Part shown: positions 1,809 through 38,411 of the stretch, in pieces
Layout of the letters: each line of letters begins with the position of its first letter
Position numbering within the stretch: position 1 is the stretch's first letter
DNA from: a phage
Length of the DNA stretch: 40,613 nucleotides
Sequence record: PZ019082.1
Strand: one strand, 5' to 3'
Translations under genes and position numbers: made by a program
The notes under the pieces: model-generated
What the model saw: only the letters and a program-made list of their open reading frames with translations
Told to the model about the DNA's origin: nothing
Databases searched by the model: none

Positions 1809-1819
1809 GAGGACAACAA

Positions 1820-3313: not shown

Positions 3314-3323
3314 GTTCACCTAT

Positions 3324-3346
3324 AGCCCCGAAAGGGGCTTTCTTAT
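3324..3346 (+). terminator. rho-independent terminator-like hairpin
   Basis: AGCCCC-GAAA-GGGGCT stem-loop followed by TTCTTAT. Confidence 0.6.
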
Positions 3347-3349
3347 AGT

Positions 3350-4426
3350 ATGCTATTAACTTTAGCACCACAGGGTTTAACTATGAGCTTACTTACATCC
3401 CTAATCAGCCACCAGATATGGCTGCAACGAACCGCATCCGGCGAAGTGAAAGACCTCGCACCGTTCATTCAGGAAATGCGGGACGAAATCAAACGGCAGG
3501 TGCTGTTATTCGGTGACGACGGGCGAAGCACCGCGCGGCTGAATAAACTGTTACGCGACCTTGAAGAAGCGCTAACCGGACTTACCGGCGACTGGCAAAC
3601 AAAGCTGACAGAAGACCTCAAGGAGCTGGCGGCGTATGAGGCTGAGTGGAACGTAAAGACGCTGGCCACCAACGTAGATGCGGAATTTGTCACGCCTACC
3701 GCCGAACAGGTGTGGGCTGCCGCTGAGTTTCAACCCTTATCATTAAGCGACAAGCCTGTTGATTTCACTAAGCTGATGTCGGGATGGGGTGAAACCGAAG
3801 TAGCACGTCTCGTAACCGGCGTTAAGATGGGCTTTGTTCAGGGTAAGACAACACGGCAGATTGTTACAGAAGTAGTCGGTAAAGGTGGGCTGGCTGACGT
3901 ATCAGAGAAATATGCGGCTACAGTAATCCGCACCGCGCTGTCCCACGTATCCAACGAAGCCCGTAACGAGACGTACCGCCAGAACGACGACATCATCGAG
4001 AAGTACGAGTGGGTGTCGACGCTGGACAGCCGTACCAGTACGATTTGTAGGGCCAGAGACGGAATGACGTGGGAAATCGGTAAGGGGCCGATGCCGCCAG
4101 CACATCCGAATTGCCGGAGTACCACTGCACCAGTAATCAGTTCGGAGTTCGACTTCCTCGATAAGGGAGCAAAACGAGCAGCTAAGGGTGCGGACGGCGG
4201 TATGCAGGTAAGTGCAGACACCACCTATTATGAGTTCCTGAAACAACAACCGGCATGGTTTCAGGACCAGGCTCTAGGCCCTGTTCGCGGTAAGATTTTC
4301 CGTAACAGCGGTATATCGCCGGAAGAGTTTCGCGTAATATCTGTAGATGGTTTCGGGAATCCGCTCACGCTTAAGCAGATGGCGGAACTCGATAAACGTG
4401 TTGCTGATTATCTGAAAGGGGAATAA
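3350..4426 (+). CDS. head morphogenesis protein (Mu F / SPP1 gp7-like, inferred from position)
   Basis: 358 aa ORF following portal; alternative start at 3372; synteny only. Confidence 0.5.
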   Translation: MLLTLAPQGLTMSLLTSLISHQIWLQRTASGEVKDLAPFIQEMRDEIKRQVLLFGDDGRSTARLNKLLRDLEEALTGLTGDWQTKLTEDLKELAAYEAEWNVKTLATNVDAEFVTPTAEQVWAAAEFQPLSLSDKPVDFTKLMSGWGETEVARLVTGVKMGFVQGKTTRQIVTEVVGKGGLADVSEKYAATVIRTALSHVSNEARNETYRQNDDIIEKYEWVSTLDSRTSTICRARDGMTWEIGKGPMPPAHPNCRSTTAPVISSEFDFLDKGAKRAAKGADGGMQVSADTTYYEFLKQQPAWFQDQALGPVRGKIFRNSGISPEEFRVISVDGFGNPLTLKQMAELDKRVADYLKGE

Positions 4427-6437: not shown

Positions 6438-7406
6438 ATGTCTCTGTCAGATATGAAGGTTTATAACGACGATATCGTCGGTACCACTATCGAACTGCTT
6501 GGTCAGAAAACTGACCAGTTTAACGCGGCCTCTGGTGGGGCAATTGTACTGTCTACCGCTTCATGGCGCGGTGACTTCTCCCGTGAGTCTTTCTTTAACC
6601 AGATTGCCTCAGCTAAACGCCGCGTTGACCGTTACGCGGCTATCGCCTCTCAGGCCGCTACCGCTCTGACTCAGGGTGAGCATGTAGGCGTTAAAGTCGC
6701 TGGCGGCTTCGGTCCGGTACTGTTCGAGCCTGCGCAAATGACCTGGCTGAACGAAGACCCGGCAAGCGCGATTCGTGCTATTTCAGAAGGCTTCTCTGAC
6801 GCACTGTTGGCAGACCAGCTTAACACTGCTGTTGGTGCTGCGGTTGCCGCGGTATCCGGTCAGACCGCACTGGTTAACGACGTATCTGCGTCCGCGGGCC
6901 TGTCCCTGAACGTGCTGAACAACAGCCACGCTAAATTCGGCGACCAGTCTCAGTTGCTGATTACCGACATCATGACTGGCGCGGCTTACCACACTCTGGT
7001 AGACAAAGCGCTGACCAACGCAAACCAGCTGTTCGTTGCCGGTAACGTTATGGTTGTCGATGTTCTCGGTAAGCGTTACGTAATCTCCGACATCCCTGCG
7101 CTGTACGAAGCTGGTACTCCGAACAAGACTAAGGTCCTGTCCGTAGTTGCAAACGGCATCATCGTTGACAATGCTTCTGACATTATCAGCAACATTGACA
7201 CCAGCAACGGTAACACCCGCATCCAGACCACCTGGCAGGCGGACTACAGCTTCGGCCTGAAACTGAAAGGCTATAGCTGGGATGCTACCAACGGCGGTAA
7301 ATCTCCGCTGGATGCAGAACTGTTCACCGCATCCAACTGGGACAAAGCTGTTGCCGAGAACAAGCACACCCTCGGTACTCTGGCAATCGCTGACGCAGAC
7401 CTGTAA
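6438..7406 (+). CDS. major capsid protein
   Basis: 322 aa ORF after scaffold with RBS GAGGATAA, followed by strong terminator 7426-7448. Confidence 0.65.
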   Translation: MSLSDMKVYNDDIVGTTIELLGQKTDQFNAASGGAIVLSTASWRGDFSRESFFNQIASAKRRVDRYAAIASQAATALTQGEHVGVKVAGGFGPVLFEPAQMTWLNEDPASAIRAISEGFSDALLADQLNTAVGAAVAAVSGQTALVNDVSASAGLSLNVLNNSHAKFGDQSQLLITDIMTGAAYHTLVDKALTNANQLFVAGNVMVVDVLGKRYVISDIPALYEAGTPNKTKVLSVVANGIIVDNASDIISNIDTSNGNTRIQTTWQADYSFGLKLKGYSWDATNGGKSPLDAELFTASNWDKAVAENKHTLGTLAIADADL

Positions 7407-7425
7407 CACGGTTGATGGCAGAAAC

Positions 7426-7448
7426 AAAGGGGCTTCGGCCCCTTTTTA
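7426..7448 (+). terminator. rho-independent terminator
   Basis: GGGGC-TTCG-GCCCC hairpin followed by TTTTT. Confidence 0.75.
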
Positions 7449-7463
7449 CTAGGAGAAATTAAA

Positions 7464-7631
7464 GTGGAAATTAAATACGTACCAATGCCAATCACCATCG
7501 AGCAGAAGCGCGAATATAACCGTCAGGGGTTCCGCGTGGTAGATGCGCGTTTCGCACCAGAAGGTGCTGTGGTAGAATCGACTAAAGAAGAGACGCCACG
7601 CCGCCAGCGTCGGGCGAAATCAGAGGAATAA
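7464..7631 (+). CDS. small hypothetical protein (55 aa, GTG start)
   Basis: Not in ORF track (under 60 aa); strong RBS AGGAG 8 nt upstream of GTG; fills gap between capsid terminator and next gene. Confidence 0.4.
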   Translation: MEIKYVPMPITIEQKREYNRQGFRVVDARFAPEGAVVESTKEETPRRQRRAKSEE

Positions 7632-7634
7632 TTT

Positions 7635-8147
7635 ATGCCGCTAATCGTGGAAGATGGGTCGATAGTACCTGATGCCGACAGTTACGTTAGTCTGGCTGAC
7701 GCCCGCGCGTTAGCGGCTAATTATGGTCTTGAGCTACCTGCAGACGATACTGCCGCGGAGGTGGCCCTGCGCAACGGTGCTACTTATGTTGGGCTTGCGG
7801 AGCCGCAGATGTGCGGTCGCCGTGTATCCGCCGAGCAGTCTCTGGCATACCCACGTACCGGAACAACACTAAACGGCTTCACCGTAGCTGATAATGTTAT
7901 TCCGTCGCAGTTAATCCGGGCGCAAGTAATCGCTGCTGTTACGTACGGCGTAGGTACGGATGTTCGGGCTAACTCTGATGGACGTTCCGTGCAGACCGAA
8001 CGTGTCGAGGGCGCAGTGACCGTGACATACTTCAACAACGGCAACAGTGGCGCTACAACTGCGATTACCGCCGCGGACGACGCTTTACGCCCGTTACTGT
8101 GTGGCGGTCTTAACAATGGCTTCTCGTTTAATGTGTACCGGGGTTAA
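7635..8147 (+). CDS. putative head-tail connector / adaptor protein
   Basis: 170 aa ORF, RBS GAGGAA; position between capsid and tail genes. Confidence 0.35.
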   Translation: MPLIVEDGSIVPDADSYVSLADARALAANYGLELPADDTAAEVALRNGATYVGLAEPQMCGRRVSAEQSLAYPRTGTTLNGFTVADNVIPSQLIRAQVIAAVTYGVGTDVRANSDGRSVQTERVEGAVTVTYFNNGNSGATTAITAADDALRPLLCGGLNNGFSFNVYRG

Positions 8148-8149
8148 AA

Positions 8150-8764
8150 ATGGCGAAGACTAAATCCGAGATGTTCACCCTTATCGGGACAAATCTTCCC
8201 GATAACACCACCGGACTTATTACCCCAGCCGCATTGCGCGAGGTAATGACGCAGATGGCAGACTCCCCTATTTACGCCACTCCCGGGGTGAAAGAGGTTG
8301 AAGTTCTCCGTGCCGCGTCTACCGTAACACAAGCGCCTACCGCGGTAGATACGGCGTTGCAGTTAACTTTCGGTGCTGCTCAGGGTGGCGCATCCAACCC
8401 GGTAATGATTAATGCCGCCGGTTTGGTTACGTTCAACACTGCGGGTAACTATGCCGTTCGCATCAAGTTACAGGCAGGACGTACAGGGGCCAGCGGTACG
8501 TCCATACTATTATCTCGCATTCTTATTAATGGGGCCCAGTACGGTTCGCCCGCTGCCACGAAACTGGTAAGCTCAGATACTACAATTCCCATTGAATCAC
8601 GCGTAGTTATTAACCCTACCGCAGGCCAGACATTCGCCGTTCAGATTATGCGAGATAGCGCAGGAACTAACTTCGGTGGCGTATACCCGCAAGTGGCTAC
8701 GGTAACCGCATGGGGTACAGCACCTTCTGCGCTACTGGTTATTTCAAGACTGGAGGCCGCCTGA
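8150..8764 (+). CDS. hypothetical virion protein
   Basis: 204 aa ORF in head-tail joining region; no motif recognised. Confidence 0.35.
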   Translation: MAKTKSEMFTLIGTNLPDNTTGLITPAALREVMTQMADSPIYATPGVKEVEVLRAASTVTQAPTAVDTALQLTFGAAQGGASNPVMINAAGLVTFNTAGNYAVRIKLQAGRTGASGTSILLSRILINGAQYGSPAATKLVSSDTTIPIESRVVINPTAGQTFAVQIMRDSAGTNFGGVYPQVATVTAWGTAPSALLVISRLEAA

Positions 8765-9123
8765 TGAGCACCGCTTTCAGTAAACGTATGCAAGGCGTGG
8801 GGACACGCCTGCTAACCAAATTCGGGAGCACGGTATCTCTGATTCGCGCTGGCTCGAAAGTGTGGGATGAAGTTCTCGGTGAGTACGTCTGGTCTGCGGA
8901 TGAAGTGTCGCCGTTGAAAGCTGTTCCGGTTCCGGTAAACGTGGGACTGGTGAACGGTACGACGATTCAGGCGGGCGACATGATTGTTAAAGCCGATTGC
9001 AGCGTCGTTCCGGAGATGGAAGACAAGGTGCAATTCGGCGGCGAGCAATGGTCTGTCGTAGCCATTGAGAAGAAGATGGTTAACGATGATGTAGTGGCCT
9101 ACTTTATTCAGGTGAGAAAATGA
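8764..9123 (+). CDS. putative head-tail joining protein
   Basis: ATG overlapping upstream stop (TGATG); track ORF begins upstream at 8710; synteny. Confidence 0.35.
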   Translation: MSTAFSKRMQGVGTRLLTKFGSTVSLIRAGSKVWDEVLGEYVWSADEVSPLKAVPVPVNVGLVNGTTIQAGDMIVKADCSVVPEMEDKVQFGGEQWSVVAIEKKMVNDDVVAYFIQVRK

Positions 9124-9515
9124 GTTTCGCGCTTGATGTCTCTAAGTTCGTGGAAAAGGCGAAGAAGAATCCCGAGAAGGTGATGCGTCAGGTGTCTATC
9201 AAGCTGTTTTCCGCTATCATAAAGGCGAGTCCGGTTGATACAGGCCGCTTTCGTATGAACTGGATGGCATCTGGTGGTACTCCTGCTTCCGGGGTTACAG
9301 GTGCTACGGATAAATCAGGAAACACAGCAACCGGAAACGCTACGAGTTTCGTGCTGAAAGCCGCGGACTGGCACGAGTTCACGCTGACAAATAATCTGCC
9401 GTACGCGCAACGTCTGGAGTATGGCTGGTCGCAACAGGCGCCCGCCGGGATGGTCCGGACTAACGTGTCCCGCTTCCAGCAACTCATTAACGAAGAAGCC
9501 AACAAGGTGAAATGA
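9120..9515 (+). CDS. putative tail completion protein
   Basis: ATGA overlap coupling; synteny. Confidence 0.35.
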   Translation: MSFALDVSKFVEKAKKNPEKVMRQVSIKLFSAIIKASPVDTGRFRMNWMASGGTPASGVTGATDKSGNTATGNATSFVLKAADWHEFTLTNNLPYAQRLEYGWSQQAPAGMVRTNVSRFQQLINEEANKVK

Positions 9516-9928
9516 TGGGCTACTTTGAGGACTTAACAAAAGCGTTCGATGTGCCGCTGGTAGCCTTCGGAAACGCCAACGGCATCAAGGTAGCGCTTGA
9601 AAACATCGACGCGCCGACGTCAACCGATACCCCGTATCTGGCAAGTTACATATTGCTGGCAGATACGGAACAGGCGGATTTGTTCTTCACGGAACAACGC
9701 TCAGGTGTTTATCAGGTTGACATTAACTACGCATCGGTGAAAGGTAGCGCGCCAATCAATAAAATGGCAGACTTACTTAACACGGCGTTTAAAGCAGGTA
9801 AGACATTTTCACGTAACGACATCTGCGCCGAGGTACAATCGGTTAGCCTGGGGCCACTGATTGTAGAAAACGGATGGGCCAAACGACCATTGTCAATTAA
9901 CTTTATTGCATTCACCAAGAGGCTGTGA
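9512..9928 (+). CDS. putative tail terminator protein
   Basis: ATGA overlap coupling; synteny. Confidence 0.35.
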   Translation: MMGYFEDLTKAFDVPLVAFGNANGIKVALENIDAPTSTDTPYLASYILLADTEQADLFFTEQRSGVYQVDINYASVKGSAPINKMADLLNTAFKAGKTFSRNDICAEVQSVSLGPLIVENGWAKRPLSINFIAFTKRL

Positions 9929-12516: not shown

Positions 12517-12544
12517 ATAGTAGCCTACTTATTATCTTGAACAA
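12517..12544 (-). promoter_or_regulatory. sigma70-like promoter (TTGTTC-N16-TACTAT), early-promoter family
   Basis: Minus-strand TTGTTCaagataataagtaggcTACTAT shares aagata..taggcTACTAT with promoter at 35301-35329; upstream of phosphoesterase gene. Confidence 0.4.
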
Positions 12545-12818
12545 ACTTTTCAAACGCGTCCGCCTTTTCTTTACTATTAGGCGAGAAACGTTTGTGATTA
12601 CCCTCTCTCACCCATTTAGCATTGAACGCGTCCCATAAATCTGCGTTAACTTTGATGCTCTCTTTGATTTCCGAATCTTCCGGTTTAGCGACAGCAGCCA
12701 GAATTTTATGCAGAAGCTGAATCTGTTCATTTGCTCTCGAGGCTTTACTAATTACGATAAACAGAAACGCGGTCTGAATGGCGAGCACTACTACGGCAGC
12801 GATTAATAGTTCGAACAT
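12525..12818 (-). CDS. small single-pass membrane protein (97 aa)
   Basis: ATG at 12818 with RBS AGAGGAA (track ORF starts at GTG 12851); hydrophobic N-terminus LLIAAVVVLAIQTAFLFIVI. Confidence 0.5.
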   Translation of the reverse strand: MFELLIAAVVVLAIQTAFLFIVISKASRANEQIQLLHKILAAVAKPEDSEIKESIKVNADLWDAFNAKWVREGNHKRFSPNSKEKADAFEKFVQDNK

Positions 12819-12850
12819 GGTTATTTCCTCTGTAAGTAAAATGTATATCA

Positions 12851-12890
12851 CCGATAAGTGAATAGTACCCTATTATATTGGGGTGCGCAA
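12851..12890 (-). promoter_or_regulatory. early-type promoter (TTGCGC-N17-TACTAT), near-identical copy of 34301-34340
   Basis: Reverse complement matches 34301-34340 at 37 of 40 positions, including TACTATTCACTTATCGG. Confidence 0.6.
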
Positions 12891-12998
12891 GTAATGTGAT
12901 AGAATAATTTTGCACCTAGTGTCGCGCACGAAAAGCGGTTGGTTACCGCCTGGTGCATTTCTCTTTAACCAACAACCTCTTAACCAAAGGATTAAAGA

Positions 12999-25128: not shown

Positions 25129-25413
25129 CTAACTATAATAGTTAGCTATTAGGTCGTCAACCTGTTTAAACGAACCAACGACAAAAACATTCGCGCCACG
25201 TTTACGCATCCGCGCGTGTTCACGTAGCTGGTGCGGGTCTGGCTTCGTGTTTTCGTCTTTCTTAACCTCGACGAACCAGACTATGCCGCCGGGGAGAATT
25301 ACCAGCAGGTCAGGAGCGCCTGAGCGCCCCTCGTAAGACAGCTTACGAACGAGGCCACCAATGGCCTCGAACATCTCTTTTGCGTATTTCTGAATCTTGC
25401 CTTCCGGGGTCAT
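25129..25413 (-). CDS. VRR-NUC domain nuclease
   Basis: PD-(D/E)XK-like motif PDLLV ... FVEVKK; 94 aa. Confidence 0.65.
   Translation of the reverse strand: MTPEGKIQKYAKEMFEAIGGLVRKLSYEGRSGAPDLLVILPGGIVWFVEVKKDENTKPDPHQLREHARMRKRGANVFVVGSFKQVDDLIANYYS
25132..25160 (-). promoter_or_regulatory. sigma70-like promoter TTGACG-N17-TATAGTTAG
   Basis: Minus-strand TTGACGacctaatagctaactatTATAGTTAG; lies within the 3-prime end of the VRR-NUC coding sequence; same architecture as 28687-28715 and 30806-30834. Confidence 0.5.
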
Positions 25414-25644: not shown

Positions 25645-25776
25645 TCATTCCAGCACCCACAGATAAATTGCGATGAACATTCCCAATACCGCAGCCATCA
25701 TGCCGTATTGGCCCTCGTGACAATAGACACCGGCGGCAAATCCTGCCAGTAACGCGATAATCAGTTTACTTAGCAT
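25645..25776 (-). CDS. small hydrophobic membrane protein (43 aa)
   Basis: Not in ORF track; ATG overlaps last codons of DNA polymerase gene; RBS GGAG; hydrophobic throughout. Confidence 0.35.
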   Translation of the reverse strand: MLSKLIIALLAGFAAGVYCHEGQYGMMAAVLGMFIAIYLWVLE

Positions 25777-27946
25777 AGCGCTTCATCTCCGCACCTTCTG
25801 CCACAAGAGGGAACCCTTCGGCCCATTCCGGTAATTCGCACATTAATTTTTCCAGTTCAGCCACCGTGTACTCAGGTGTGTCTGGAGTTTCACACACTAA
25901 TTCATCGTGTACCGAAAGCACGATGGGGTACCCGCCGCCCTCAACATTAATCATCGCGTATGCGAGTAAATCACGGCACAGCGCCTGAGTGCAGTTTTCC
26001 ACCAGTTTACCGGAGTAGGTGTACTGGAAGCCCCACTGACGGGTTAACTGGTTTTCGCCCTGGTACTTGATGCGCACGTTAGTGGACACCTTCCCGTCTT
26101 CGTCTGCCTCTTTAGACACACTTAACCCGACGCCCGGATAAGACATAACGCGGCCCGACGGCAACGTCATGCGCAGCCACCAACCAGCGACTTTGTTGCC
26201 GTTGTTATCTGTTTCTACGTTACGCGAAAACTTAACTCCCCGCGGACCTGCAGTGAACTCTTTACCTGGGTTGCGGATAGCCGCCATAGCTGCGTCTTCA
26301 ATATCACGCCAGAATGCTACTGTTTCAGGGTGAGACTCCCGCCACATGCGCTTGATAGCGTCACAGGTGCGCCACACTTTCTTATCAAGAATATATGACG
26401 GCCGGTCGTCTTTTTCACCAGGACGTGGTTGTCGCTTGGCTTCCTGAATACGTGCCCACTCATATCCACGTGCGGTAGCGGTCCAGATGTGGTCGGGGAA
26501 AGTACCGTCCATTGTTTTAGCCATATCAACCAGGTCAAGGCCGAGGTTCTTGGCGAACTGTACGAATGCGCCGACACCGCCCGCGTAGCCAAGACCCAAT
26601 TCACAGGCTTTACCAATCTGGCGTAAGTCTTTACGTTCTTTCTTAATGTAATCCGGATCCATGCCAAACATCTTACCCGCGGTTACACAGTAAATATCCA
26701 GCCCAGCGCGGAACGTATCGAGCGCGGTTTCTTCTCCCGCCAGCCACGCAAGCCCACGGCCTTCAACGTTAGAGTAATCGGCAACGACAAACTTATGCCC
26801 TGCTTCCGGGATAATGCAGCTACGAACTGTCGATGCCGTCAGCTTGGCTACGTCAAATCGGCGGTGAGCACGACCCTTAAGTAACGCTGAAATGCCTTTA
26901 TCCAGTTCATCATCATGATAGTACCCGCGGGCCAGGTTCTGCGGCTGAAAGCCTTTACCCGCCCATCGCAAAGTACGTTTTGCCCCGCCGTACTGTAAAC
27001 AACCGCGGCGTCGGTCGTCCGACGAGCGGCCCAACAGCAGCGGGTTATATTTCGTTGATGCGGTGGATGCGGCCCCGAGGCGCATTTCGATAATCGTGCG
27101 AGCGTCGTCCGGTAAATCATCATCCGCCAGCAGGTCGTTAAGCGTCGACTTCTGCGCATTGTGGATGCGGTGCGCTGGCGCAAGTTCACGCAGAATCGGA
27201 AGGAAGTCTTTACCGGTAAGTGAGCCGCCGTATTTGCGTTGGGCTTCTTCCTGTAACTGTGCCTTGTGCTTCTCCACGGCTTCAATCGCTGCTTCTGCCA
27301 GCGCTACGTCAACCTTAAACCCGCGGTCGTTGATTAACTGGTCCAGTTCCAGTACACGGTCTTCAAACTCGGAGTTACCCCACCGCGGCAGCTTATGGAA
27401 GACTTCCCGCATCGCAGTGATGTCGCTCACGGCGTACTTGATGAACAGCGCCCACTCATCGGGATGTGTTTCAGCGGTGTAGCGGCGGATTTTGTAGTTC
27501 TTAGGTGTCGGTTTAGAAAAACGCTGAATCAGCGCCTTGCCGCGTTTGTCTTTTGCGTTGTCCGCAGACACGCCCAGCACTTCGCACAATGCGTCAAGTG
27601 AACCCGGCAGCGCGTGGCGAAACGCCCAAATCATCGTATCAATGGTGTTGCTTACCGGAATATCAAAGTCCCAGCAGTGTTTCATGATGAGCCTGTCGAA
27701 CATTGAGCCGTTGTGCCACACCATCTTAATGCGGCTGTTTGGCTTAACCAGACGGCGTAAGGCGCGGTGCAAATCCCCCGGCATGTCGCTGCCGTCTGTG
27801 CAATCCCATACCTGCACAGGCTCGTCGTCAAAAGCGTATGTGCAGATAAGCACTTCGGTAGTTGGGTGCTCTGCGTAAGCGTATGAACCGACTTTCTTTA
27901 AATCGGCTTCGGAGAATGTTTCAAAGTCTAAGAACAGGTAACTCAT
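25766..27946 (-). CDS. family A DNA polymerase with N-terminal 3-prime to 5-prime exonuclease domain
   Basis: Exo I FLDFETFS; motif A DYSNVEGR; motif B K..LGLGYAGG; motif C VHDE. Confidence 0.8.
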   Translation of the reverse strand: MSYLFLDFETFSEADLKKVGSYAYAEHPTTEVLICTYAFDDEPVQVWDCTDGSDMPGDLHRALRRLVKPNSRIKMVWHNGSMFDRLIMKHCWDFDIPVSNTIDTMIWAFRHALPGSLDALCEVLGVSADNAKDKRGKALIQRFSKPTPKNYKIRRYTAETHPDEWALFIKYAVSDITAMREVFHKLPRWGNSEFEDRVLELDQLINDRGFKVDVALAEAAIEAVEKHKAQLQEEAQRKYGGSLTGKDFLPILRELAPAHRIHNAQKSTLNDLLADDDLPDDARTIIEMRLGAASTASTKYNPLLLGRSSDDRRRGCLQYGGAKRTLRWAGKGFQPQNLARGYYHDDELDKGISALLKGRAHRRFDVAKLTASTVRSCIIPEAGHKFVVADYSNVEGRGLAWLAGEETALDTFRAGLDIYCVTAGKMFGMDPDYIKKERKDLRQIGKACELGLGYAGGVGAFVQFAKNLGLDLVDMAKTMDGTFPDHIWTATARGYEWARIQEAKRQPRPGEKDDRPSYILDKKVWRTCDAIKRMWRESHPETVAFWRDIEDAAMAAIRNPGKEFTAGPRGVKFSRNVETDNNGNKVAGWWLRMTLPSGRVMSYPGVGLSVSKEADEDGKVSTNVRIKYQGENQLTRQWGFQYTYSGKLVENCTQALCRDLLAYAMINVEGGGYPIVLSVHDELVCETPDTPEYTVAELEKLMCELPEWAEGFPLVAEGAEMKRYAK

Positions 27947-28005: not shown

Positions 28006-28632
28006 TTAGCGGCGACGACGTTCGCGGCGCGGTGCTTCATCTTCTTCGTCGTCTTCCAGGTCATTGACGCTTGCGGCGACTTTAGAACCACCAAACGCCT
28101 TACCTTCGCCGACGTATTTAATTCCCAGCAGTTTAACACCGAGGACTTTATATTTCTGGCTGAACCAGATTTCAACGCTTACGTTAGCGACGCATCCGCT
28201 GTAAACCTGTTCGCCTTCAATCTGTTCACCGTCTACATTGAAGTCCTGTTCTACCTGAGTCTCACCTTTTTTAGAGGTTATAATCAGCGGCTGTTTCTGC
28301 GCCTTCGCTTTGAAGTAGAAGCCTTCCGGGAAGTCTTCAAAGGGATTGTCACGCTCGGCAATGTCTTTAACAGCACATTTATCCATGTGCTTACCTTCGC
28401 CGTAGTTGGACCTCATCCACTTCTCTGCGGCGGCAGCACCTAACGCTTCTTCAACTACGGCGTAAACAGTGTCGTAAAGCGCATCGATTTGCGCATGGTC
28501 TGGCGGCAGGATAATAGTCGCGCTGTACTGGCCTTTAGTAATTGAGCCATCATCGTTTTCGCGGTCTTTTTCGCGTTCGAATACGTTAACCCAAGCAGTG
28601 TTTACTTTACGCAGATTTAATGTCAGTCCCAT
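28006..28632 (-). CDS. putative ssDNA-binding-like protein (DUF2815-like) with acidic/basic C-terminal tail
   Basis: 208 aa; position between DUF2800-like nuclease and PolA; C-terminus DLEDDEEDEAPRRERRRR. Confidence 0.35.
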   Translation of the reverse strand: MGLTLNLRKVNTAWVNVFEREKDRENDDGSITKGQYSATIILPPDHAQIDALYDTVYAVVEEALGAAAAEKWMRSNYGEGKHMDKCAVKDIAERDNPFEDFPEGFYFKAKAQKQPLIITSKKGETQVEQDFNVDGEQIEGEQVYSGCVANVSVEIWFSQKYKVLGVKLLGIKYVGEGKAFGGSKVAASVNDLEDDEEDEAPRRERRRR

Positions 28633-28686: not shown

Positions 28687-28715
28687 ACTATAATAGCTAA
28701 CTATTCAGGTGTCAA
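28687..28715 (-). promoter_or_regulatory. sigma70 consensus-like promoter TTGACA-N17-TATAGT
   Basis: Minus-strand TTGACAcctgaatagttagctatTATAGTTC in intergenic region upstream of 28632 start. Confidence 0.6.
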
Positions 28716-28719
28716 CACT

Positions 28720-29961
28720 TTATTCTAAATCTTCTCCACTAACCTGATTCCACTCAGGCCGTTTGTCGTCTGCCGTTGCAACGCATGGCGCTCCCGGCTT
28801 ACGGGTAATGAAGTCTTTCAGTTCTTCTTCCGGTATTACTTTAACAGCTTCGGTCGGTGTCATTAGCACTTCTTTAGTTAGCTTGTCGCCGTAGAGTTCT
28901 GTTACTTTCTCCGCGTCTTTCCACGCACGATTACTGGGACGGCCTTCAACCAGTTTGTACCCAGGCACTTTCTTACCTGAATGCAAAGCGGCGGCCATCG
29001 CTTTTTCAACCTTGTCGATGTGCTGGCGCAACAGCGGCAACTTCTCATACTCAGCTACGAGTTGCTCAGGCGTAAGTTCCAGCGCAAAGTCGTCCTCCAG
29101 TTCTTCCGCCAGTACCGCGTTAACGGTTTTTGTACGCGCGGCGCACTGTTCTGAGAACCGACACCACTGACAACCATCTGCAGAAGGCTTGAAGTCCGAC
29201 GCTTTCAGGTTCTTCTTGCCGCGGGAATAAGCATCAAGAGCCAACAGCGCGCGTTTATGTGCGAACTTAGCGAACAGTTCCAGACCTTCAACCGAGATGT
29301 CCCACTCCGACGCACCGCCAGCATACGGCTGGAAGATTACCAGACGAACGGTTGTTATGTTATAACGTCTCTTGAGTCGGCGATAAACACCGAGAGCGTA
29401 AAGCATAAGCTGCTTGTTTTCTTTCGCTTCGACGCGATGTCGCCCGGTTTTAAGGTCCCCAATAATGAGCATGTGCTCGTCGGTGTTAGCCAGTTCCTGA
29501 ACGGCAACAAGGTCAGCGGTCCCGAACGTCTCAACGCCTTCATACCCAGGATGCAATACCTCAGTGAGATTGACGCGCATTTCCAGCTTGGCGTAAGTCG
29601 CAACGTCGATAATCGCTTTGCAGTAGTCGGTATACTTGCGCACCTGCTCAATCATGTCAGCCGTAATCAGTACCGCGCCTTTCACCGGGCTGATTAGAGC
29701 CTTAATCTGACCTTTGCCCTCATCCAACACGTAAGCACCAACTTCACGCTCTAATGGAAACGCAGTGCCTTTGATGTACTGGTTAAGGTGCATTTCCGCT
29801 ATGGTGTGCATAGTCGTACCTAATACTGCGGCCTTACCGGACGTGTTAGGAATATCTTTTTCACAGGCCAGTGATGCAGCACAGCTTAGCCACTTTTTAG
29901 CGCCAGACGGCGACAGCAGGGCGTGCACATCGTTATTGCCGCCGCGTTCTTTTAAAATCAT
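28720..29961 (-). CDS. PD-(D/E)XK nuclease with Fe-S cluster cysteines (DUF2800 / Cas4-like)
   Basis: N-terminal HALLSPSGAKKWLSC and C-terminal CQWCRFSEQC cysteine pattern; ATG at 29961 with ATGA coupling (track start GTG 29976). Confidence 0.55.
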   Translation of the reverse strand: MILKERGGNNDVHALLSPSGAKKWLSCAASLACEKDIPNTSGKAAVLGTTMHTIAEMHLNQYIKGTAFPLEREVGAYVLDEGKGQIKALISPVKGAVLITADMIEQVRKYTDYCKAIIDVATYAKLEMRVNLTEVLHPGYEGVETFGTADLVAVQELANTDEHMLIIGDLKTGRHRVEAKENKQLMLYALGVYRRLKRRYNITTVRLVIFQPYAGGASEWDISVEGLELFAKFAHKRALLALDAYSRGKKNLKASDFKPSADGCQWCRFSEQCAARTKTVNAVLAEELEDDFALELTPEQLVAEYEKLPLLRQHIDKVEKAMAAALHSGKKVPGYKLVEGRPSNRAWKDAEKVTELYGDKLTKEVLMTPTEAVKVIPEEELKDFITRKPGAPCVATADDKRPEWNQVSGEDLE

Positions 29962-30230
29962 ACCCTGTTCTCCCACTGGTCGATTAAATGTCGTGTCTTA
30001 TGCCCACAATGCATAGCCCACCCATACATCGACTCAAAAACATAAAAGTCAGGCTTGGCGAAAGTCGTGCGCTTAATCTGTGACACGTGACGGCCTAAAG
30101 ATATAGGCCGCGGTACTTTGCCTAAGTACGCCATCTCTTCCATCTGGTGCGCACCGGACGGCGCACGCAACAGCCATAGTGCCTCCGTGTTGTCCCGCCT
30201 GTCTACGGCCCGGTAGAGTTGGTAAATCAT
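29958..30230 (-). CDS. hypothetical protein (90 aa)
   Basis: RBS GAGGG; coupled to downstream nuclease gene; contains HCGHKTRH. Confidence 0.45.
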   Translation of the reverse strand: MIYQLYRAVDRRDNTEALWLLRAPSGAHQMEEMAYLGKVPRPISLGRHVSQIKRTTFAKPDFYVFESMYGWAMHCGHKTRHLIDQWENRV

Positions 30231-30250
30231 AATTCCGACCCTCAGTTAAA

Positions 30251-30266
30251 GCGGCCCGAAGGCCGC
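30251..30266 (-). terminator. weak terminator-like hairpin
   Basis: GCGGCC-CGAA-GGCCGC palindrome; only a short T-run on minus strand. Confidence 0.3.
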
Positions 30267-30273
30267 GAGATAG

Positions 30274-30774
30274 TTAGTCTTCTTCGAAATACTTGTTCTT
30301 GATTGCCGTCAGGCGTTCAAGGTATTCAGCAAGGTCTTCATCTTTAATCGCGGCAATCTTCATCTTCTTACCGGTGAACTCCTCCAGCAGTTCATCAGAA
30401 TCATCACACGCGGCATCGCTCGGACCTTCGTTAATGGCGTCGTCGATAGCCTGAATCTGGTCACGCAGAGACTGGTAATCGACTTCTTCTTTCTCTTCTT
30501 CCGGCTCTGGTGTCGGCTCCTCTACTTTAGCTTTACGCGGCTTGCGTTTTGGCTTCTCTTCTTCAACCGGTTTAGTATCAACTACGTCTTCACCTTCGAC
30601 CGGGATTTCTTTTGATCCTTCTTCTGCACACTTGGCTACTGCTTCTTTGGTATACGCTACCGTCTCTACTTCCAGAGGCGCGGAAACCTGAACAACTTGT
30701 TTCACGCTGTTCGCAGCAATCAGTTCATGAGCAACTACGAAACGTTCCAGTAATACTAAGAATTTCTCTAACAT
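30274..30774 (-). CDS. highly acidic early protein (166 aa), function unknown
   Basis: Strong RBS GAGGAGAGA; first gene after promoter 30806-30834; Glu/Asp-rich with one KPKRKPRKAK patch. Confidence 0.5.
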   Translation of the reverse strand: MLEKFLVLLERFVVAHELIAANSVKQVVQVSAPLEVETVAYTKEAVAKCAEEGSKEIPVEGEDVVDTKPVEEEKPKRKPRKAKVEEPTPEPEEEKEEVDYQSLRDQIQAIDDAINEGPSDAACDDSDELLEEFTGKKMKIAAIKDEDLAEYLERLTAIKNKYFEED

Positions 30775-30805
30775 TTGTTTCTCTCCTCTCGTTTGGTATG
30801 GGCTA

Positions 30806-30834
30806 ACTATAATAGCGAACTATTCACATGTCAA
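30806..30834 (-). promoter_or_regulatory. sigma70 consensus promoter TTGACA-N17-TATAGTTAGCCC
   Basis: Minus-strand TTGACAtgtgaatagttcgctatTATAGT followed by conserved leader AAACGAGAGGAGAGA. Confidence 0.65.
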
Positions 30835-30838
30835 TGGG

Positions 30839-30867
30839 CTTTTCTAAAATAATTAATATGGTACTAT
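30839..30867 (+). promoter_or_regulatory. putative promoter for XRE regulator gene (-10 TACTAT, weak -35)
   Basis: gTACTATTCACATATCAA upstream of RBS AAGGAG and ATG 30899; AT-rich upstream region. Confidence 0.35.
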
Positions 30868-30898
30868 TCACATATCAACTGACTAAGGAGTAATTGAC

Positions 30899-31114
30899 AT
30901 GCAACCATCTGAACTAGGCATTCGTGTAGAACAACGCCGTAAAGAACTCGGCATCTCCCAGCGCCGTCTGGCTGTCCTGACCGGGGTTTCCCAGGGCGCG
31001 ATTAACCAGCTTGCGCTCGGGGTAACTCAGGACGTCCGCCCGGCGACGCTGTTTAAACTGGCGGAAGTGCTGCAAGTAGACGCCAAGTGGCTGGCGTTAG
31101 GTGAAGGGGCTTAA
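30899..31114 (+). CDS. XRE-family helix-turn-helix transcriptional regulator (71 aa)
   Basis: HTH segment ISQRRLAVLTGVSQGAINQLALG; RBS AAGGAG; followed by terminator. Confidence 0.7.
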   Translation: MQPSELGIRVEQRRKELGISQRRLAVLTGVSQGAINQLALGVTQDVRPATLFKLAEVLQVDAKWLALGEGA

Positions 31115-31129
31115 CGCCCCTTTCTTTTT
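31104..31129 (+). terminator. rho-independent terminator
   Basis: GGGGC-TTAAC-GCCCC hairpin followed by TTTCTTTTT. Confidence 0.6.
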
Positions 31130-31131
31130 AT

Positions 31132-33402
31132 CTATTCCAAATCCTCCTCTGTCACCACCAGCATTTCATTCGGTTCGTATATTGTCTTCGGAATCTTGTT
31201 ATCGTTTATACCCCACGGCAATCGGTATTGCTTAGGGATAGGCCTGTTGTTGTTATCCAGACCTGAGACGATAACCCCGGCCTCGTGCATCTCTTCCAGT
31301 TTCTTTCGAAGGTCGTTATTAGCGTTAATCGGTACGCCGTAACTATCTTCTTTCGCTGCTTTGACGATAGCCGACATGGAAAACCCCCGCTTGTCGTCAC
31401 CCTGCTCCTGCAATTTACCTAACGCGTAAATAACCGTAGCTTCTTTGGTATCCAGTTTCTCGAACTGACCTACCTTTTCTTTAACAGCCGCTTTACCTTC
31501 CTTTGTCAGCCCTTCTTCCCGCTCTTTCTCCTCGTCGGTCTTGAATGGTTCGAAACCCCACGGCATCAGCACAAGCGCCTTGTGTGGTTCAGGCAGGTCG
31601 AGGTTTACGATTGTGCCGTATTCCTCCGTGCTTCCGAGGAACTCAACCGCGCGGTACTCTTTCGGTGGTGGCGCTTCACGGAACTGTACCGACTCCAGTA
31701 CCATGCCAACCGTCTTCTGTTGAGGCCCGTGCTTAAATTTCGAGTGGTATACATTTATTTGACGTTCGGTCGCGCGTTCGATTGTTAGTTCCACGTCGAC
31801 ACCAGCGTACAGCGCCCCACTGCCACGGGCTTTCTTTCCACCTTTCGGCGTATGGTGGACAACGCCTACCGCGGCTTTAGTTGCGTCGCGTACTTCTTTC
31901 AGGATGGCGATAACTTTACCCATGCCGATTGTCGTTGATGAACTGTTCTCGTCGAACTTATCAATCGTCAGGGCCAGCGTCTGGTTGAGGGTGTCGAACG
32001 CAACCATACCAATAGGCTCGTCGCCCGCAGTTTCGCGCATTAACTTAATCAGGCTTTTCAGTTTCCCGACTTCGCCCATGTCGATAACATGTACATAATC
32101 TTTACCTTCCTCGCCATATTTAGCCGCTAGTGCGTCGATACGTGTGCGCGTAGCTGCGCCACCTTCACCGTCAATATAGAAATGGTGGCAACGCTGGGTA
32201 TCTGCCCCGGCAAATCTGTATCCGGCGGCGCTAAGGTACATCATCCCCAGCGTATAAAACGATTTGTACGTTCCAGACTCCCCGACGATATCCCAGATGC
32301 AGTCTGTCGGCATGTATCCTTCTACGACGAAATCAGCCTTTACCGGTTCCGGTAACTCGTCCTCCTCTGAGTCCTCGTCGTCTTCCAGGTCGTCCAGACT
32401 GCATGAAACTGACTCACGCGCACCCCAGCCGATGGCCTCGGCGACTTCACTGAATGGAAGACCAGTCGCATCACACGCATACTTCCACACCTCTTTCGGT
32501 GACATGCCCTCGGTTGCCGTGATGTCTGTGTCGTGAATCATGGTTACGTTAGGTGCTTCGTACCCCTCGCGCGGGAAGCACAGCAGGAAGTCGTCCGGGC
32601 GCGGGGTCGGGTCGCTGTAGTTTTCTGCGTGTTCCGGTGTGGCGGGCATCTTAAGTCCACGCGGCGTCATGATGCCGCCGTATTCGAACGCCAGTGCCTC
32701 GAACGCATCAGTAAATGCCGTGCGCAGTTCTTCTGGTATCTGGTAATCCGATGCGCTGCTCACCTCGTAATCCGGGATGCCTTCCAGTAACTCGTCCGGG
32801 TCAATCAGGTCGTTACGGCGCGACCAGATAACGGTAGAGCCGACAGGCGGCAGGTACATCGGCTGCGACAGAGTGAACCCGCTGTGGTCCGCACCCATGC
32901 CTTTGAAGAAGTGCTCCAGCAATCCATGACGAACACGGATGATGCCACCACCTTCGACCGGGCGGCCCAGCGGCATGACGACGCGAAAGCGCGGTGACTC
33001 ATCGGTATGTGATGCCGTGGTGTAGAGGCACATAGCCAGGCGGCTACGCTTAACCAATCGCACCGCCTCCTGATACTCGTCAGGTGTTGCACTGTCGAAG
33101 TCCAGATACGCCAGCGACGATTTGTTTACAGACGCATCGCAGCGATAGAAGAAGCCTTTACGCGCCTGCTTAAAGTCCCCAGTTTCCGGGTCTTTTACGG
33201 TGCTGTGCGTTGAGTCGCACGCGGCGGTGATATACCCCGGCGCGGTCTTCGGGTTAATTCCGTCGCGAACAGCATCGAGCGGCTGGATTAACTCTTTCAG
33301 GTCGTCCAGTGTTGCCGTGTGTGTGGTTCTGACGTTTATATCCTTTTTCTCCGCCCGCGCGTTGCGACGAGACCACGAGTAGGATAAAATTACATCGGAC
33401 AT
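31132..33402 (-). CDS. putative replicative primase/helicase-like protein (756 aa)
   Basis: Central P-loop-like GESGTYKS and RecA-type layout; size and position in replication module; RBS GAAGGAAA; family assignment uncertain. Confidence 0.5.
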   Translation of the reverse strand: MSDVILSYSWSRRNARAEKKDINVRTTHTATLDDLKELIQPLDAVRDGINPKTAPGYITAACDSTHSTVKDPETGDFKQARKGFFYRCDASVNKSSLAYLDFDSATPDEYQEAVRLVKRSRLAMCLYTTASHTDESPRFRVVMPLGRPVEGGGIIRVRHGLLEHFFKGMGADHSGFTLSQPMYLPPVGSTVIWSRRNDLIDPDELLEGIPDYEVSSASDYQIPEELRTAFTDAFEALAFEYGGIMTPRGLKMPATPEHAENYSDPTPRPDDFLLCFPREGYEAPNVTMIHDTDITATEGMSPKEVWKYACDATGLPFSEVAEAIGWGARESVSCSLDDLEDDEDSEEDELPEPVKADFVVEGYMPTDCIWDIVGESGTYKSFYTLGMMYLSAAGYRFAGADTQRCHHFYIDGEGGAATRTRIDALAAKYGEEGKDYVHVIDMGEVGKLKSLIKLMRETAGDEPIGMVAFDTLNQTLALTIDKFDENSSSTTIGMGKVIAILKEVRDATKAAVGVVHHTPKGGKKARGSGALYAGVDVELTIERATERQINVYHSKFKHGPQQKTVGMVLESVQFREAPPPKEYRAVEFLGSTEEYGTIVNLDLPEPHKALVLMPWGFEPFKTDEEKEREEGLTKEGKAAVKEKVGQFEKLDTKEATVIYALGKLQEQGDDKRGFSMSAIVKAAKEDSYGVPINANNDLRKKLEEMHEAGVIVSGLDNNNRPIPKQYRLPWGINDNKIPKTIYEPNEMLVVTEEDLE

Positions 33403-33460: not shown

Positions 33461-33736
33461 TTATTCCAGGTCGCGGGAGATATTACCCTCGGGGACCAAC
33501 ACTTTTCCAATACTTCTCGCTTTCCCGTTAAGCGGCGTTGCTCTTGTTGCCCGATAAAACTTTCCTTTATTAAGAACCTCTCCGTGTTGCTCAAGAACAC
33601 TTAAAGCATGTTTAATCGGATTTACACCGTAATTATCTAACCGGTATCTACGAAGCCCGTCTAGTGTAAAAGCGCCGTTCGCCTCGGTCAGTCTGCGTGC
33701 GCACATTAATACGTGTTTCTGGAATTTAGTTAGCAT
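33461..33736 (-). CDS. hypothetical protein (91 aa)
   Basis: RBS AAGGAG 10 nt upstream; overlaps end of upstream regulator gene. Confidence 0.45.
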   Translation of the reverse strand: MLTKFQKHVLMCARRLTEANGAFTLDGLRRYRLDNYGVNPIKHALSVLEQHGEVLNKGKFYRATRATPLNGKARSIGKVLVPEGNISRDLE

Positions 33737-33905
33737 CTTTTACGTTCTCCTTAATCCAAGCCTCCACGGTAGCGCGGTCAAATGTGCCTGGCTGCCGGTA
33801 GCCGTTAATAACCCGGCAACACTCGGGGAACTTACCTGACCGAAGCCAGCGATTAAGTGTCATAGGGGAAACTCCGATTAAGTCTGCTACTTCTTTCTGT
33901 GTCAT
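33726..33905 (-). CDS. AlpA-like / excisionase-like HTH DNA-binding protein
   Basis: MTQKEVADLIGVSPMTLNRWLRSGKFPE matches AlpA-type HTH pattern; ATG at 33905 with RBS AGAGGG (track start TTG 33935). Confidence 0.55.
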   Translation of the reverse strand: MTQKEVADLIGVSPMTLNRWLRSGKFPECCRVINGYRQPGTFDRATVEAWIKENVKDAN

Positions 33906-33934
33906 TTTACACACCCTCTTTATCAAGTGAAACA

Positions 33935-33963
33935 ACTATAACACCTACAATAACTAAACACAA
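33935..33963 (-). promoter_or_regulatory. putative promoter TTGTGT-N17-TATAGT for minus-strand regulatory/primase operon
   Basis: Minus-strand motif 29 nt upstream of ATG 33905; divergent from plus promoter 33968-33995. Confidence 0.4.
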
Positions 33964-33967
33964 CCTA

Positions 33968-33995
33968 TTGACAAAATAAAATGTAGCTGTAAAAT
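33968..33995 (+). promoter_or_regulatory. putative promoter TTGACA-N16-TAAAAT
   Basis: Consensus -35 and good -10 on plus strand, about 370 nt upstream of the first plus-strand early gene. Confidence 0.4.
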
Positions 33996-34200
33996 CAACG
34001 TATCGAAGGACCTTAGTTCAGAATTACTTAGAAACATTATTCTTAAGTCTCTGGTGACCAAAGCCCGGCCCATAAAGGACGGGCGCTGAGAGTCACTTCG
34101 ACAACGTTAGTATCTAAGTTTCCTCAAAGTAACAGCAAGTAGCAAGAAAGCCCCCGTCTATTTAAATTTTGCCATATGGTATAAATCATTGATTTGCAAG

Positions 34201-34215
34201 CTCACTCACTCACTC
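34201..34215. repeat. short tandem repeat (CTCA)n, about 3.75 units
   Basis: ctcactcactcactc directly visible. Confidence 0.6.
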
Positions 34216-34300
34216 TTGGTGCCTTCGGCACCACGTTCGTTTCGTTTCGCTCGCTACCCCCATTAAACGAAAGAATCACAACGGCAACGTAACTATTCTC

Positions 34301-34329
34301 TTGCACACCCCAACATAATAGGATACTAT
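34301..34329 (+). promoter_or_regulatory. early promoter TTGCAC-N17-TACTAT
   Basis: Followed by TCACTTATCGG and leader AACGAGACAGAGGAG; 40-bp element repeated on minus strand at 12851-12890. Confidence 0.6.
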
Positions 34330-34363
34330 TCACTTATCGGAACGAGACAGAGGAGTGAGGGTT

Positions 34364-34549
34364 ATGTTTAAGAAGGGTCAGTTGGTGAGAATTTTGGAGA
34401 CAGGGGGGTTAGCGGTTATTTCATTCGCACACCACAAAGAATGTAGTGTTTATTTTGCAAAATCTTTAACGGGGTCCTATCTCACCGTGTTATACGCACA
34501 AGATATGAAACTCATCGGCAACAATTTTAAATTCAAAGGGGCGAAGTGA
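34364..34549 (+). CDS. hypothetical early protein (61 aa)
   Basis: ATG with RBS AGGAG 8 nt upstream (track ORF starts at GTG 34355). Confidence 0.5.
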   Translation: MFKKGQLVRILETGGLAVISFAHHKECSVYFAKSLTGSYLTVLYAQDMKLIGNNFKFKGAK

Positions 34550-34812: not shown

Positions 34813-35007
34813 ATGAGTCCATATAACGAATCCCGCTTACGCCGTCTGATTGGTGGTCTGCGCGCCGCCGAGTTTGTTGTTGAATGTTGGGAGAAGGTGC
34901 AATATGCCCCATGGAAGTCGTGGCATTTGGCTCATGCTAAGGAGGTAGCACAGTACCGTGAGTACAAGTTAAACAGTTTCCTTAAACACCACGGGGTTGA
35001 GTTATGA
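34813..35007 (+). CDS. hypothetical early protein (64 aa)
   Basis: ORF with G-rich RBS. Confidence 0.45.
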   Translation: MSPYNESRLRRLIGGLRAAEFVVECWEKVQYAPWKSWHLAHAKEVAQYREYKLNSFLKHHGVEL

Positions 35008-35153
35008 GAGAAGCATTTGAACGGTGGGCCGTAGTCGAGGGTCTGCCGGTTAACAAGGGTTCAAAGAAAGAGTACCTGAACGTTAAGACGCGTCTCGCGT
35101 GGCGGGCGTGGAAAGCTGGTGTGCAAGCCCGAGCTGGTGTAACAGGTCAATAG
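35004..35153 (+). CDS. hypothetical small protein (49 aa)
   Basis: Not in ORF track; ATGA overlap with upstream stop. Confidence 0.35.
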   Translation: MREAFERWAVVEGLPVNKGSKKEYLNVKTRLAWRAWKAGVQARAGVTGQ

Positions 35154-35208
35154 GTTACTATTTGGCTTAGTGACTTACGCTGCTACACAGCAGCGTACAA
35201 CTTTAACT

Positions 35209-35300: not shown

Positions 35301-35329
35301 CTTGCACACTAAGATAGAATAGGCTACTA
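35301..35329 (+). promoter_or_regulatory. early promoter TTGCAC-N17-TACTAT
   Basis: Same architecture as 34301-34329; followed by TCATTTACAC and leader AAACGAGAGGAGAGA. Confidence 0.6.
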
Positions 35330-35361
35330 TTCATTTACACAAACGAGAGGAGAGACAGAAG

Positions 35362-38186: not shown

Positions 38187-38207
38187 TTTATTTTCTGCAA
38201 TGACTAG

Positions 38208-38236
38208 TTGACTATTACCTTCGACCCTATTATATT
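38208..38236 (+). promoter_or_regulatory. promoter TTGACT-N17-TATATT
   Basis: Followed by leader AACGAGAACGGAGTAGAGAGA and ATG 38271. Confidence 0.55.
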
Positions 38237-38270: not shown

Positions 38271-38411
38271 ATGAGAATTTACAAGGTTGAGCTTCACGGT
38301 AAAGTACTTGGTCATTATAACTTTGGCGAGTACATCTCCGCCGATTGCGCACGTGACATCCTGATTAGCGAAGGTTTTAGTCAATACATCAAAGTCACGG
38401 AGATTAAATAA
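38271..38411 (+). CDS. small hypothetical protein (46 aa)
   Basis: Not in ORF track; RBS GGAGTAGAGAGA; first gene after promoter. Confidence 0.4.
   Translation: MRIYKVELHGKVLGHYNFGEYISADCARDILISEGFSQYIKVTEIK

Follow-up and report, generated by a model that had tools for sequence, protein, structure and literature searches.

The 71-aa XRE protein of this phage is, by sequence and modelled fold, a relative of 434 Cro, and the conserved element in its control region is a 14-bp palindrome, AATAG-N4-CTATT, found again at six further sites in the genome. Five of these (12861, 25137, 28692, 34317 and 35318) are promoter-like, so the regulator looks global. Judging from the sequences, we lean towards the view that the XRE protein acts as a repressor of the Cro type that lacks a CI partner and would turn down its own promoter, the divergent promoter of the acidic-protein and exonuclease genes, and other early and replication promoters. 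The window, that is the whole stretch of DNA that was analysed (40,613 nt), is the genome of a Kagunavirus-like virulent siphophage of the subfamily Guernseyvirinae.

A 434 Cro-like protein encoded among the replication genes

An earlier note on this DNA had described a 71-aa XRE helix-turn-helix gene as the only plus-strand gene within a block of minus-strand genes, convergent with the primase genes, and this description was borne out. The gene (30899..31114, plus strand) was recognised by its open reading frame, its translation and a match to Pfam HTH_3, and it is convergent with the gene of the replicative helicase-primase (31132-33402, minus strand; AAA_25 match and annotation in relatives). 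In the annotation of relatives and of the Jerseyvirus SETP3, the region reaching from the helicase and polymerase genes to the HTH_17 gene is otherwise encoded on the minus strand, and in our genome the remaining plus-strand ORFs of this region overlap minus-strand genes with Pfam support. The minus-strand genes comprise those of DNA polymerase A (25766-27946), an Enc34-type SSB (28006-28632) and a DUF2800/PD-(D/E)XK exonuclease (28720-29976), followed by a gene for a 90-aa protein and, next to it, the gene of an acidic 166-aa protein (30274-30774; phrog_3127, '13.88 kDa late protein'). Beyond the helicase-primase gene lie the minus-strand genes of a 91-aa protein and of an HTH_17/excisionase-like protein (33726-33935; Pfam match). 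The same layout is found in annotated relatives, where the plus-strand gene is named 'repressor' or 'transcriptional repressor'. In a megablast search, positions 29900-31900 matched 434 phage records with 80-93% identity, mostly Escherichia Kagunavirus and Salmonella Jerseyvirus. Neither the scanned ORFs of the genome nor the annotation of relatives contained a CI, an integrase or another repressor.

The match of the XRE protein to HTH_3 (PF01381) covers residues 11-65 and scores 48.2 bits against a gathering cut-off of 23 (E=1.1e-12). Its best sequence matches in the PDB are 434 Cro and the N-terminal domain of the 434 repressor (phmmer E=5.6e-6 to 1.4e-5, residues 6-68). Foldseek analysis of the AF2 model (pLDDT 82) gave 2cro and 1pra as top matches (TM 0.71-0.77), with 40% identity to 2cro. 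Sequence and predicted fold agree in placing the full domain within the 434 Cro/repressor-type DNA-binding domains. Codon variants of the gene in 37 relatives (77 synonymous versus 11 non-synonymous) point to purifying selection, and as far as these sequences go the recognition helix is essentially invariant.

Signals for independent expression surround the gene. Its Shine-Dalgarno sequence AAGGAG (30885-30890, plus strand; read from the sequence) is nearly invariant in relatives, with AAGGAA in one or two of 39 sequences. Between the stop codons of the XRE and helicase-primase genes, a hairpin (31103-31123) with a T run on the plus strand resembles an intrinsic terminator (31103-31131 in total), and in SETP3 a terminator is annotated at the homologous position. 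The minus strand has no T run after the hairpin, so that transcription of the helicase-primase gene probably continues into the XRE gene on its antisense strand.

The palindrome is enriched and coincides with promoter-like sites

Judged from the sequences compared, the conserved element of the XRE control region is the palindrome AATAG-N4-CTATT. In a genome-wide, unbiased count of all perfect 5-N(2-6)-5 palindromes it ranked first with seven copies. The same palindrome ranked first in SETP3 with five copies, where it outranked the terminator stems. Allowing one mismatch, we found 12 matches versus 0.89 expected, O2 (see below) included, and none of 100 shuffles reached this number. The core alone, TGAATAGT/ACTATTCA, occurs seven times in the genome, compared to about 1.1 expected occurrences, and six of these share the longer inverted-repeat pattern.

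Two candidate operators lie upstream of the XRE gene, with a centre-to-centre distance of 44 bp. The first, O1 (AATAGcgaaCTATT, 30811-30824), is an exact copy located in the spacer of P_L, at about -25 to -12. P_L is a sigma-70-like promoter on the minus strand (TTGACA-N17-TATAGT, 30806-30834, 11/12) for the acidic-protein/exonuclease operon, whose first gene encodes the acidic protein, and both its -10 (TATAGT, 30806-30811) and its -35 (TTGACA, 30829-30834) are invariant in relatives. The second, O2 (AATATggtaCTATT, 30855-30868), carries one mismatch and overlaps the -10 TACTAT of the predicted XRE promoter, which is preceded by an extended TG at 30859-30860 (TGgTACTAT, 30859-30867, plus strand). 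SETP3 has a full TTGCAC-N17-TACTAT at this position. An alternative XRE promoter, TTCACA-N16-TAAAAT (30823-30850, plus strand, 10/12), would have its -35 overlapped by O1. On both readings, the promoter is overlapped by O1 and O2.

The remaining promoter-associated copies are all exact and fall, together with O1, into two classes. In class I, TTGAC(A/G)-N17-TATAGT on the minus strand, the palindrome sits in the spacer at about -25 to -12. Besides P_L (site 30811), this class contains the copy at 28692-28705 within TTGACA-N17-TATAGT (28687-28715), upstream of the SSB and DNA polymerase genes, and the copy at 25137-25150 within TTGACG-N17-TATAGT (25132-25160), upstream of a second helicase block. 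In class II, TTGC(A/G)C-N17-TACTAT, the palindrome covers the -10 at about -19 to -6, and each site lies directly upstream of a gene with a Shine-Dalgarno sequence. This class comprises 12861-12874 (TTGCGC-N17-TACTAT, minus strand, upstream of 12525-12851), 34317-34330 and 35318-35331 (both TTGCAC-N17-TACTAT, plus strand, upstream of the genes starting at 34355 and 35362). The predicted XRE promoter, too, has the -10 of class II, TACTAT. We had at first read the class II sites in the opposite orientation, with a poor -35 (CCGATA), and rejected this reading in favour of the orientation that has adjacent genes and TTGCAC-N17-TACTAT. In SETP3, promoters are annotated at the homologues of the 28692 and 12861 sites.

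All exact copies except 35149, and O2 as well, overlap the spacer or the -10 of promoter-like sites. Of the ten sigma-70-like sequences that score best in the genome, five overlap a palindrome. Several strong promoter-like sites, for example 33968-33995, are free of it. The exception is an orphan copy at 35149-35162, which has no recognisable -35 or -10 and overlaps the stop codon of 35004-35153. Two registers and a promoterless orphan are what would be expected of an independent operator and not of a fixed promoter element.

Several further observations concern these regions. The modules at 12840-12900 (minus strand) and 34295-34345 (plus strand) are nearly identical over about 40 nt (CTTGCrCACCCCAAyATAATAGGrTACTATTCACTTATCGG), a similarity suggesting that a whole control module was duplicated and came to lie at either end of the early region. 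The leaders of the transcripts from P_L, 34317 and 35318 would have a motif in common, AAACGAGAGGAG, which includes the Shine-Dalgarno sequence (30775-30799, 34341-34364 and 35340-35361). The orphan copy is kept in several relatives and is followed by two perfect hairpins (35179-35196, the next from about 35211). At 38203-38236, a palindrome with one mismatch, ACTAGttgaCTATT, overlaps TTGACT-N17-TATATT on the plus strand, upstream of a cluster of small genes starting at 38271; going by its sequence, this may be an additional operator of lower strength. The palindrome-free site at 33968-33995 is a strong plus-strand promoter-like sequence (TTGACA-N16-TAAAAT, 11/12). The approximately 320 nt that follow it, up to 34316, contain no convincing ORF and several hairpins, including a stem with a UUCG loop (34218-34232). 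The fold z-score is -1.9, and an Rfam search, which covered the whole genome, gave no matches. The region 33968-34316 could encode a small RNA or form a long leader that precedes the early genes to its right.

Half-sites are conserved while their surroundings vary

We examined conservation in 37 Kagunavirus loci from IMG/VR together with this genome. In O1, the ten half-site positions were invariant in 38 of 38 genomes, while all four central positions varied among relatives. On its flank, the three to four bases between CTATTCA and TGTCAA were hypervariable and included a 1-nt indel. O2 was nearly invariant. The other syntenic sites were located from flanking anchors, hence without bias, and the exact palindrome was present in 29 of 32 relatives at 25137, 32 of 34 at 28692, 34 of 34 at 34317 and 24 of 27 at 35318. 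This pattern of fixed half-sites around a variable centre fits a protein-binding site, as far as can be told from the alignments. Some of this conservation could be due to promoter function, as the sites coincide with AT-rich sequence of the -10 type. A mosaic junction marks the left end of the conserved intergenic region, as comparison of 30760-30790 with loci L001-L039 showed. Among relatives, at least four unrelated 5' ends occur in the gene that comes first after P_L on the minus strand, next to a nearly invariant promoter/operator region.

Kagunavirus and Jerseyvirus differ in the base that flanks the half-site: in Jerseyvirus it is T in 58 of 58 half-sites, whereas Kagunavirus has either T or G. 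As its right half, Kagunavirus has CTATTC at six of the seven orthologous sites, in both promoter classes, as against CTATTA in Jerseyvirus. The recognition helix of the XRE protein differs as well (SQGAINQ in Kagunavirus versus SQSLITH in Jerseyvirus), that is at four of seven positions. In locus L078, with 77% XRE identity, the recognition helix is the same and CTATTC is kept. Going by these alignments, the concerted difference between the genera is one that host sigma-70 cannot explain. Both genera share an identical 5-bp motif core, which, on the same alignments, would be unexpected if the recognition helix reads the core. In the XRE promoter region of Jerseyvirus both palindromes are imperfect (AATCG and ATTAC), as would be expected for a self-limiting regulator.

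More distant relatives point to the origin of the unusual gene order. In Serratia phage Tsm2 (L081), the palindrome is present at three syntenic promoters and the XRE orthologue has 42% identity; no HTH_17 homologue was found in Tsm2, and no canonical palindrome in the region upstream of its own XRE gene. Salmonella phage TS6 (L041) encodes an XRE-like protein with 39% identity. It lacks the exact palindrome and HTH_17 and has only degenerate sites, such as ATTAG-N4-GTATT at promoters, whose sequences possibly represent a diverged operator set. TS6 was therefore too divergent to serve as a covariation test and was discarded for this purpose. Its positions 842-1204 contain a tandem GAATAACTATTCAC (two copies) in a long non-coding region. 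In both phages (Tsm2 6799-9567, TS6 1205-4095), the helicase-primase operon begins with the XRE homologue, which diverges from the operon of the acidic protein and the exonuclease. Given this order, the convergent lone-gene layout of our phage looks like the product of an inversion: with the replication block inverted in Kagunavirus and Jerseyvirus, the XRE gene became monocistronic and convergent with the helicase-primase gene. From the gene content compared, it looks as if the inversion also brought in the HTH_17 gene.

The XRE protein is the favoured binder

The operators of 434 are 14 bp long and two-fold symmetric (ACAAG-N4-CTTGT-like), with contacted half-sites of about 5 bp and four uncontacted central base pairs, and the operators of P22 c2 have the same 5-N4-5 core. 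AATAG-N4-CTATT has this geometry and therefore fits a Cro-type dimer as its binder. In the alignment to the 434 repressor, the equivalents of Gln28 and Gln33 are kept while Gln29 is replaced by Gly. Compared with ACAAG, the 434 half-site, the motif matches at positions 1, 4 and 5 (A..AG) and differs at positions 2 and 3. By analogy with 434, this correspondence of glutamines and operator positions is suggestive. The two sites flanking the regulator's own promoter, as read from the sequence, also count towards the XRE protein as binder. Points against it are the core that both genera share in spite of four helix substitutions, the lack of a canonical palindrome upstream of the XRE gene in Tsm2, the lack of the exact motif in TS6 and the strong promoter-like sites that are free of the palindrome. 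Our literature search found no functional work on this regulator or on Guernseyvirinae promoters, and the sole Kagunavirus RNA-seq study (K1B4) is too coarse for transcript timing. Papers from the 1990s on phage MB78 reportedly describe promoters that lack a -35 and require a phage factor.

Alternatively, the palindrome could be a real operator for another protein, namely the HTH_17/excisionase-like protein, a small early protein or a host regulator, and the XRE protein could have its targets elsewhere or none at all. We consider this unlikely. HTH_17 is 71% conserved between Kagunavirus and Jerseyvirus, compared to 48% for the XRE protein, which would match the identical motif core; TS6 has neither HTH_17 nor an exact copy of the motif; and in Tsm2 the region upstream of the XRE gene is without the motif. 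However, Tsm2 carries the motif at syntenic promoters and an XRE orthologue while having no HTH_17 homologue, and HTH_17 was set aside as binder for this reason. In addition, the usual targets of small HTH_17/Xis-type proteins are direct repeats, while the motif here is two-fold symmetric and, at 14 bp, fits a Cro-type dimer. Two of the sites lie in the control region of the XRE gene itself, and among the scanned ORFs no clear DNA-binding domain was found besides XRE and HTH_17. As for host regulators, the palindrome is not known to match the consensus of ArgR, CRP or MarA boxes convincingly.

A second alternative, which seems improbable to a similar degree, dispenses with an operator. The repeats would be paralogous phage promoter modules, in the form of a tandem P_L1/P_L2, and the palindrome would reflect the needs of RNA polymerase, that is an AT-rich -10 and an extended -10 on either strand. 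Such an origin would account for the coincidence of every site except 35149 with a sigma-70-like promoter, for the left arm, which lies within TATAATAG, a sequence with a consensus -10, and for the near-duplication of the 12861 and 34317 modules. The second repeat copy can moreover be read as TTGATA-N18-AATTAT on the minus strand. We rejected this leftward P_L2, which is a weak match (9/12) and whose putative -35 is broken up in Jerseyvirus by an insertion (TTAGATA). A promoter spacer is not normally constrained in sequence, yet GAATAG is invariant in that of P_L while its neighbours vary. Two registers relative to the -10 and an orphan without promoter likewise speak against a pure promoter element, and so does the concerted C/A difference between genera whose hosts have essentially the same sigma-70.

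The 16-bp direct repeat is a probable by-product of the operator

The earlier note had pointed to a 16-bp direct repeat upstream of the XRE gene and had read it as part of an autoregulated switch for the acidic-protein/replication transcript. Copy 2 (ACTATTCACATATCAA) lies where it had been placed (30863-30878, plus strand) and covers the right half of O2 and the start of the XRE leader. Copy 1 (ACTATTCACATGTCAA), covering the right half of O1 and the -35 of P_L, lies at 30819-30834 (plus strand), one base off the 30820-30835 given before. The 16-mers are identical at 15 of 16 positions, a value reached in one of 2,000 shuffles of the intergenic region, and their likeness spans 25 nt (30810-30834 versus 30854-30878, 84%). 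The overlaps with promoters were found as described: copy 1 contains the -35 TTGACA (30829-30834) of the minus-strand promoter, and copy 2 overlaps the -10-like TACTAT (30862-30867) of the XRE gene's own candidate promoter.

As a functional unit the repeat did not survive the comparison with relatives. Among relatives, a 1-nt indel and hypervariable bases occur between ACTATTCA and TGTCAA, and the spacing of the 16-mers ranges from 43 to 45 nt. Because its middle is variable in this way, the two copies match at only 9-15 of 16 positions in 36 relatives. In our motif search, matches to ACTATTCACATRTCAA with up to three mismatches led to the core TGAATAGT and then to the palindrome, upon which the 16-mer was dropped. 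The repeat is a by-product, to go by the sequences, composed of the right half-site of the operator (ACTATTCA) and the adjacent promoter or leader sequence. A local two-promoter switch that is restricted to the region between the XRE and acidic-protein genes and has the two 16-bp repeats for operators is very unlikely. In spite of the rare identity of the repeats and their position over the P_L -35 and the XRE -10, copy 1 is interrupted by indel and hypervariable bases in relatives, the invariant part is a palindrome that reaches outside the 16-mers and marks six other sites, and Cro-type dimers bind two-fold symmetric sites and not 16-bp direct repeats.

What stands of the proposed switch is that candidate operators overlap both promoters, and from their positions autoregulation together with control of the acidic-protein/exonuclease transcript is plausible. 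The arrangement is not local, given the six further sites, and it has no second regulator of the CI type.

Comparison with known systems

The closest known counterpart is 434 Cro, which is likewise 71 aa long, has the five-helix HTH_3 fold and is the best PDB match in both sequence and structure; the candidate operator resembles those of 434 in being a 14-bp, two-fold 5-N4-5 site that overlaps promoters. The two proteins have 37-41% identity. In contrast to the 434 system, neither a CI nor an integrase, a tripartite OR/OL or lysogeny functions were found in our phage, and single operators are predicted at about eight promoters with AATAG in place of ACAAG. Like Cro of lambda and P22, the XRE protein would be a small early repressor that damps early and replication promoters as well as its own synthesis. 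The lambdoid order, with cro followed by the replication genes, resembles that of Tsm2 and TS6, where the homologue heads the helicase-primase operon. In the virulent phage studied here, by contrast, the replication block is inverted and the regulator is monocistronic and convergent. The bistable CI/Cro switch of lambdoid phages also differs in that the divergent gene here encodes the acidic protein and not a CI-type repressor.

Other small XRE-fold proteins are less similar in context. The C proteins of restriction-modification systems (C.AhdI and C.BclI, at Foldseek ranks 4 and 13) are also XRE-fold dimers that autoregulate via two adjacent upstream palindromes. However, no restriction or methylase genes adjoin the XRE gene, whose neighbours are those of the helicase-primase and of the acidic protein/exonuclease, and site sequence and spacing are unlike C-boxes, with 44 bp between O1 and O2. 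The antitoxins HigA and HipB have the same fold. Unlike them, the XRE gene has its own predicted promoter and is monocistronic, with a terminator-like hairpin at its stop codon, and neither a co-transcribed toxin partner nor a plus-strand neighbour was found.

A Cro-without-CI model for Guernseyvirinae

We infer binding of the motif by the XRE protein, repression and timing from the gene and its family, from the enrichment and conservation of the motif, and from its overlap with promoters. In the model of a Cro-like repressor, the XRE protein would be made from a host-sigma-70 promoter and would accumulate after infection. As a dimer, it would occupy the 14-bp operators AATAG-N4-CTATT. At O1 it would fill the spacer of the strong divergent P_L and repress the acidic-protein/exonuclease operon. 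Further targets would be the promoters of the helicase, of SSB and polymerase, of the leftward 12.8-kb cluster and of two rightward clusters of early genes. Last, at higher concentration, the protein would turn down its own promoter via the weaker, imperfect O2 as negative feedback. Since no CI-type partner, integrase or lysogeny function was found among the scanned ORFs, such a protein would be a Cro-without-CI feedback regulator and not a bistable switch.

A more far-reaching version is conceivable, which we regard as rather doubtful. Most early and replication transcription of the strictly lytic Guernseyvirinae would then be governed by a single Cro-like protein that acts on about eight scattered individual operators, which co-evolved with it (CTATTC in Kagunavirus, CTATTA in Jerseyvirus). 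In these two genera the inversion would have stranded the regulator gene in antisense within the leftward replication transcript, and read-through from the helicase-primase operon, for want of a terminator on the minus strand, could oppose its synthesis, forming a timing circuit of interference and feedback.

The regulator itself is of an ordinary kind, a variation on Cro that introduces no new principle, and it seems to be wired more globally than the earlier note had assumed. For the biocontrol of E. coli and Salmonella, phages of both Kagunavirus and Jerseyvirus are commonly isolated; they are in use as small chassis for phage engineering, and their gene regulation is essentially unstudied. 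The GenBank labels of the XRE gene vary between 'repressor', 'Cro' and 'hypothetical', and some papers take the absence of a repressor as evidence for a lytic lifestyle. Our analysis offers a reason why such a phage may carry a repressor-like gene without being temperate. The compact repressor/operator pair could be reused in engineering, and the candidate operator together with the map of about eight promoters provides a model for the temporal programme of these phages that is open to direct testing.
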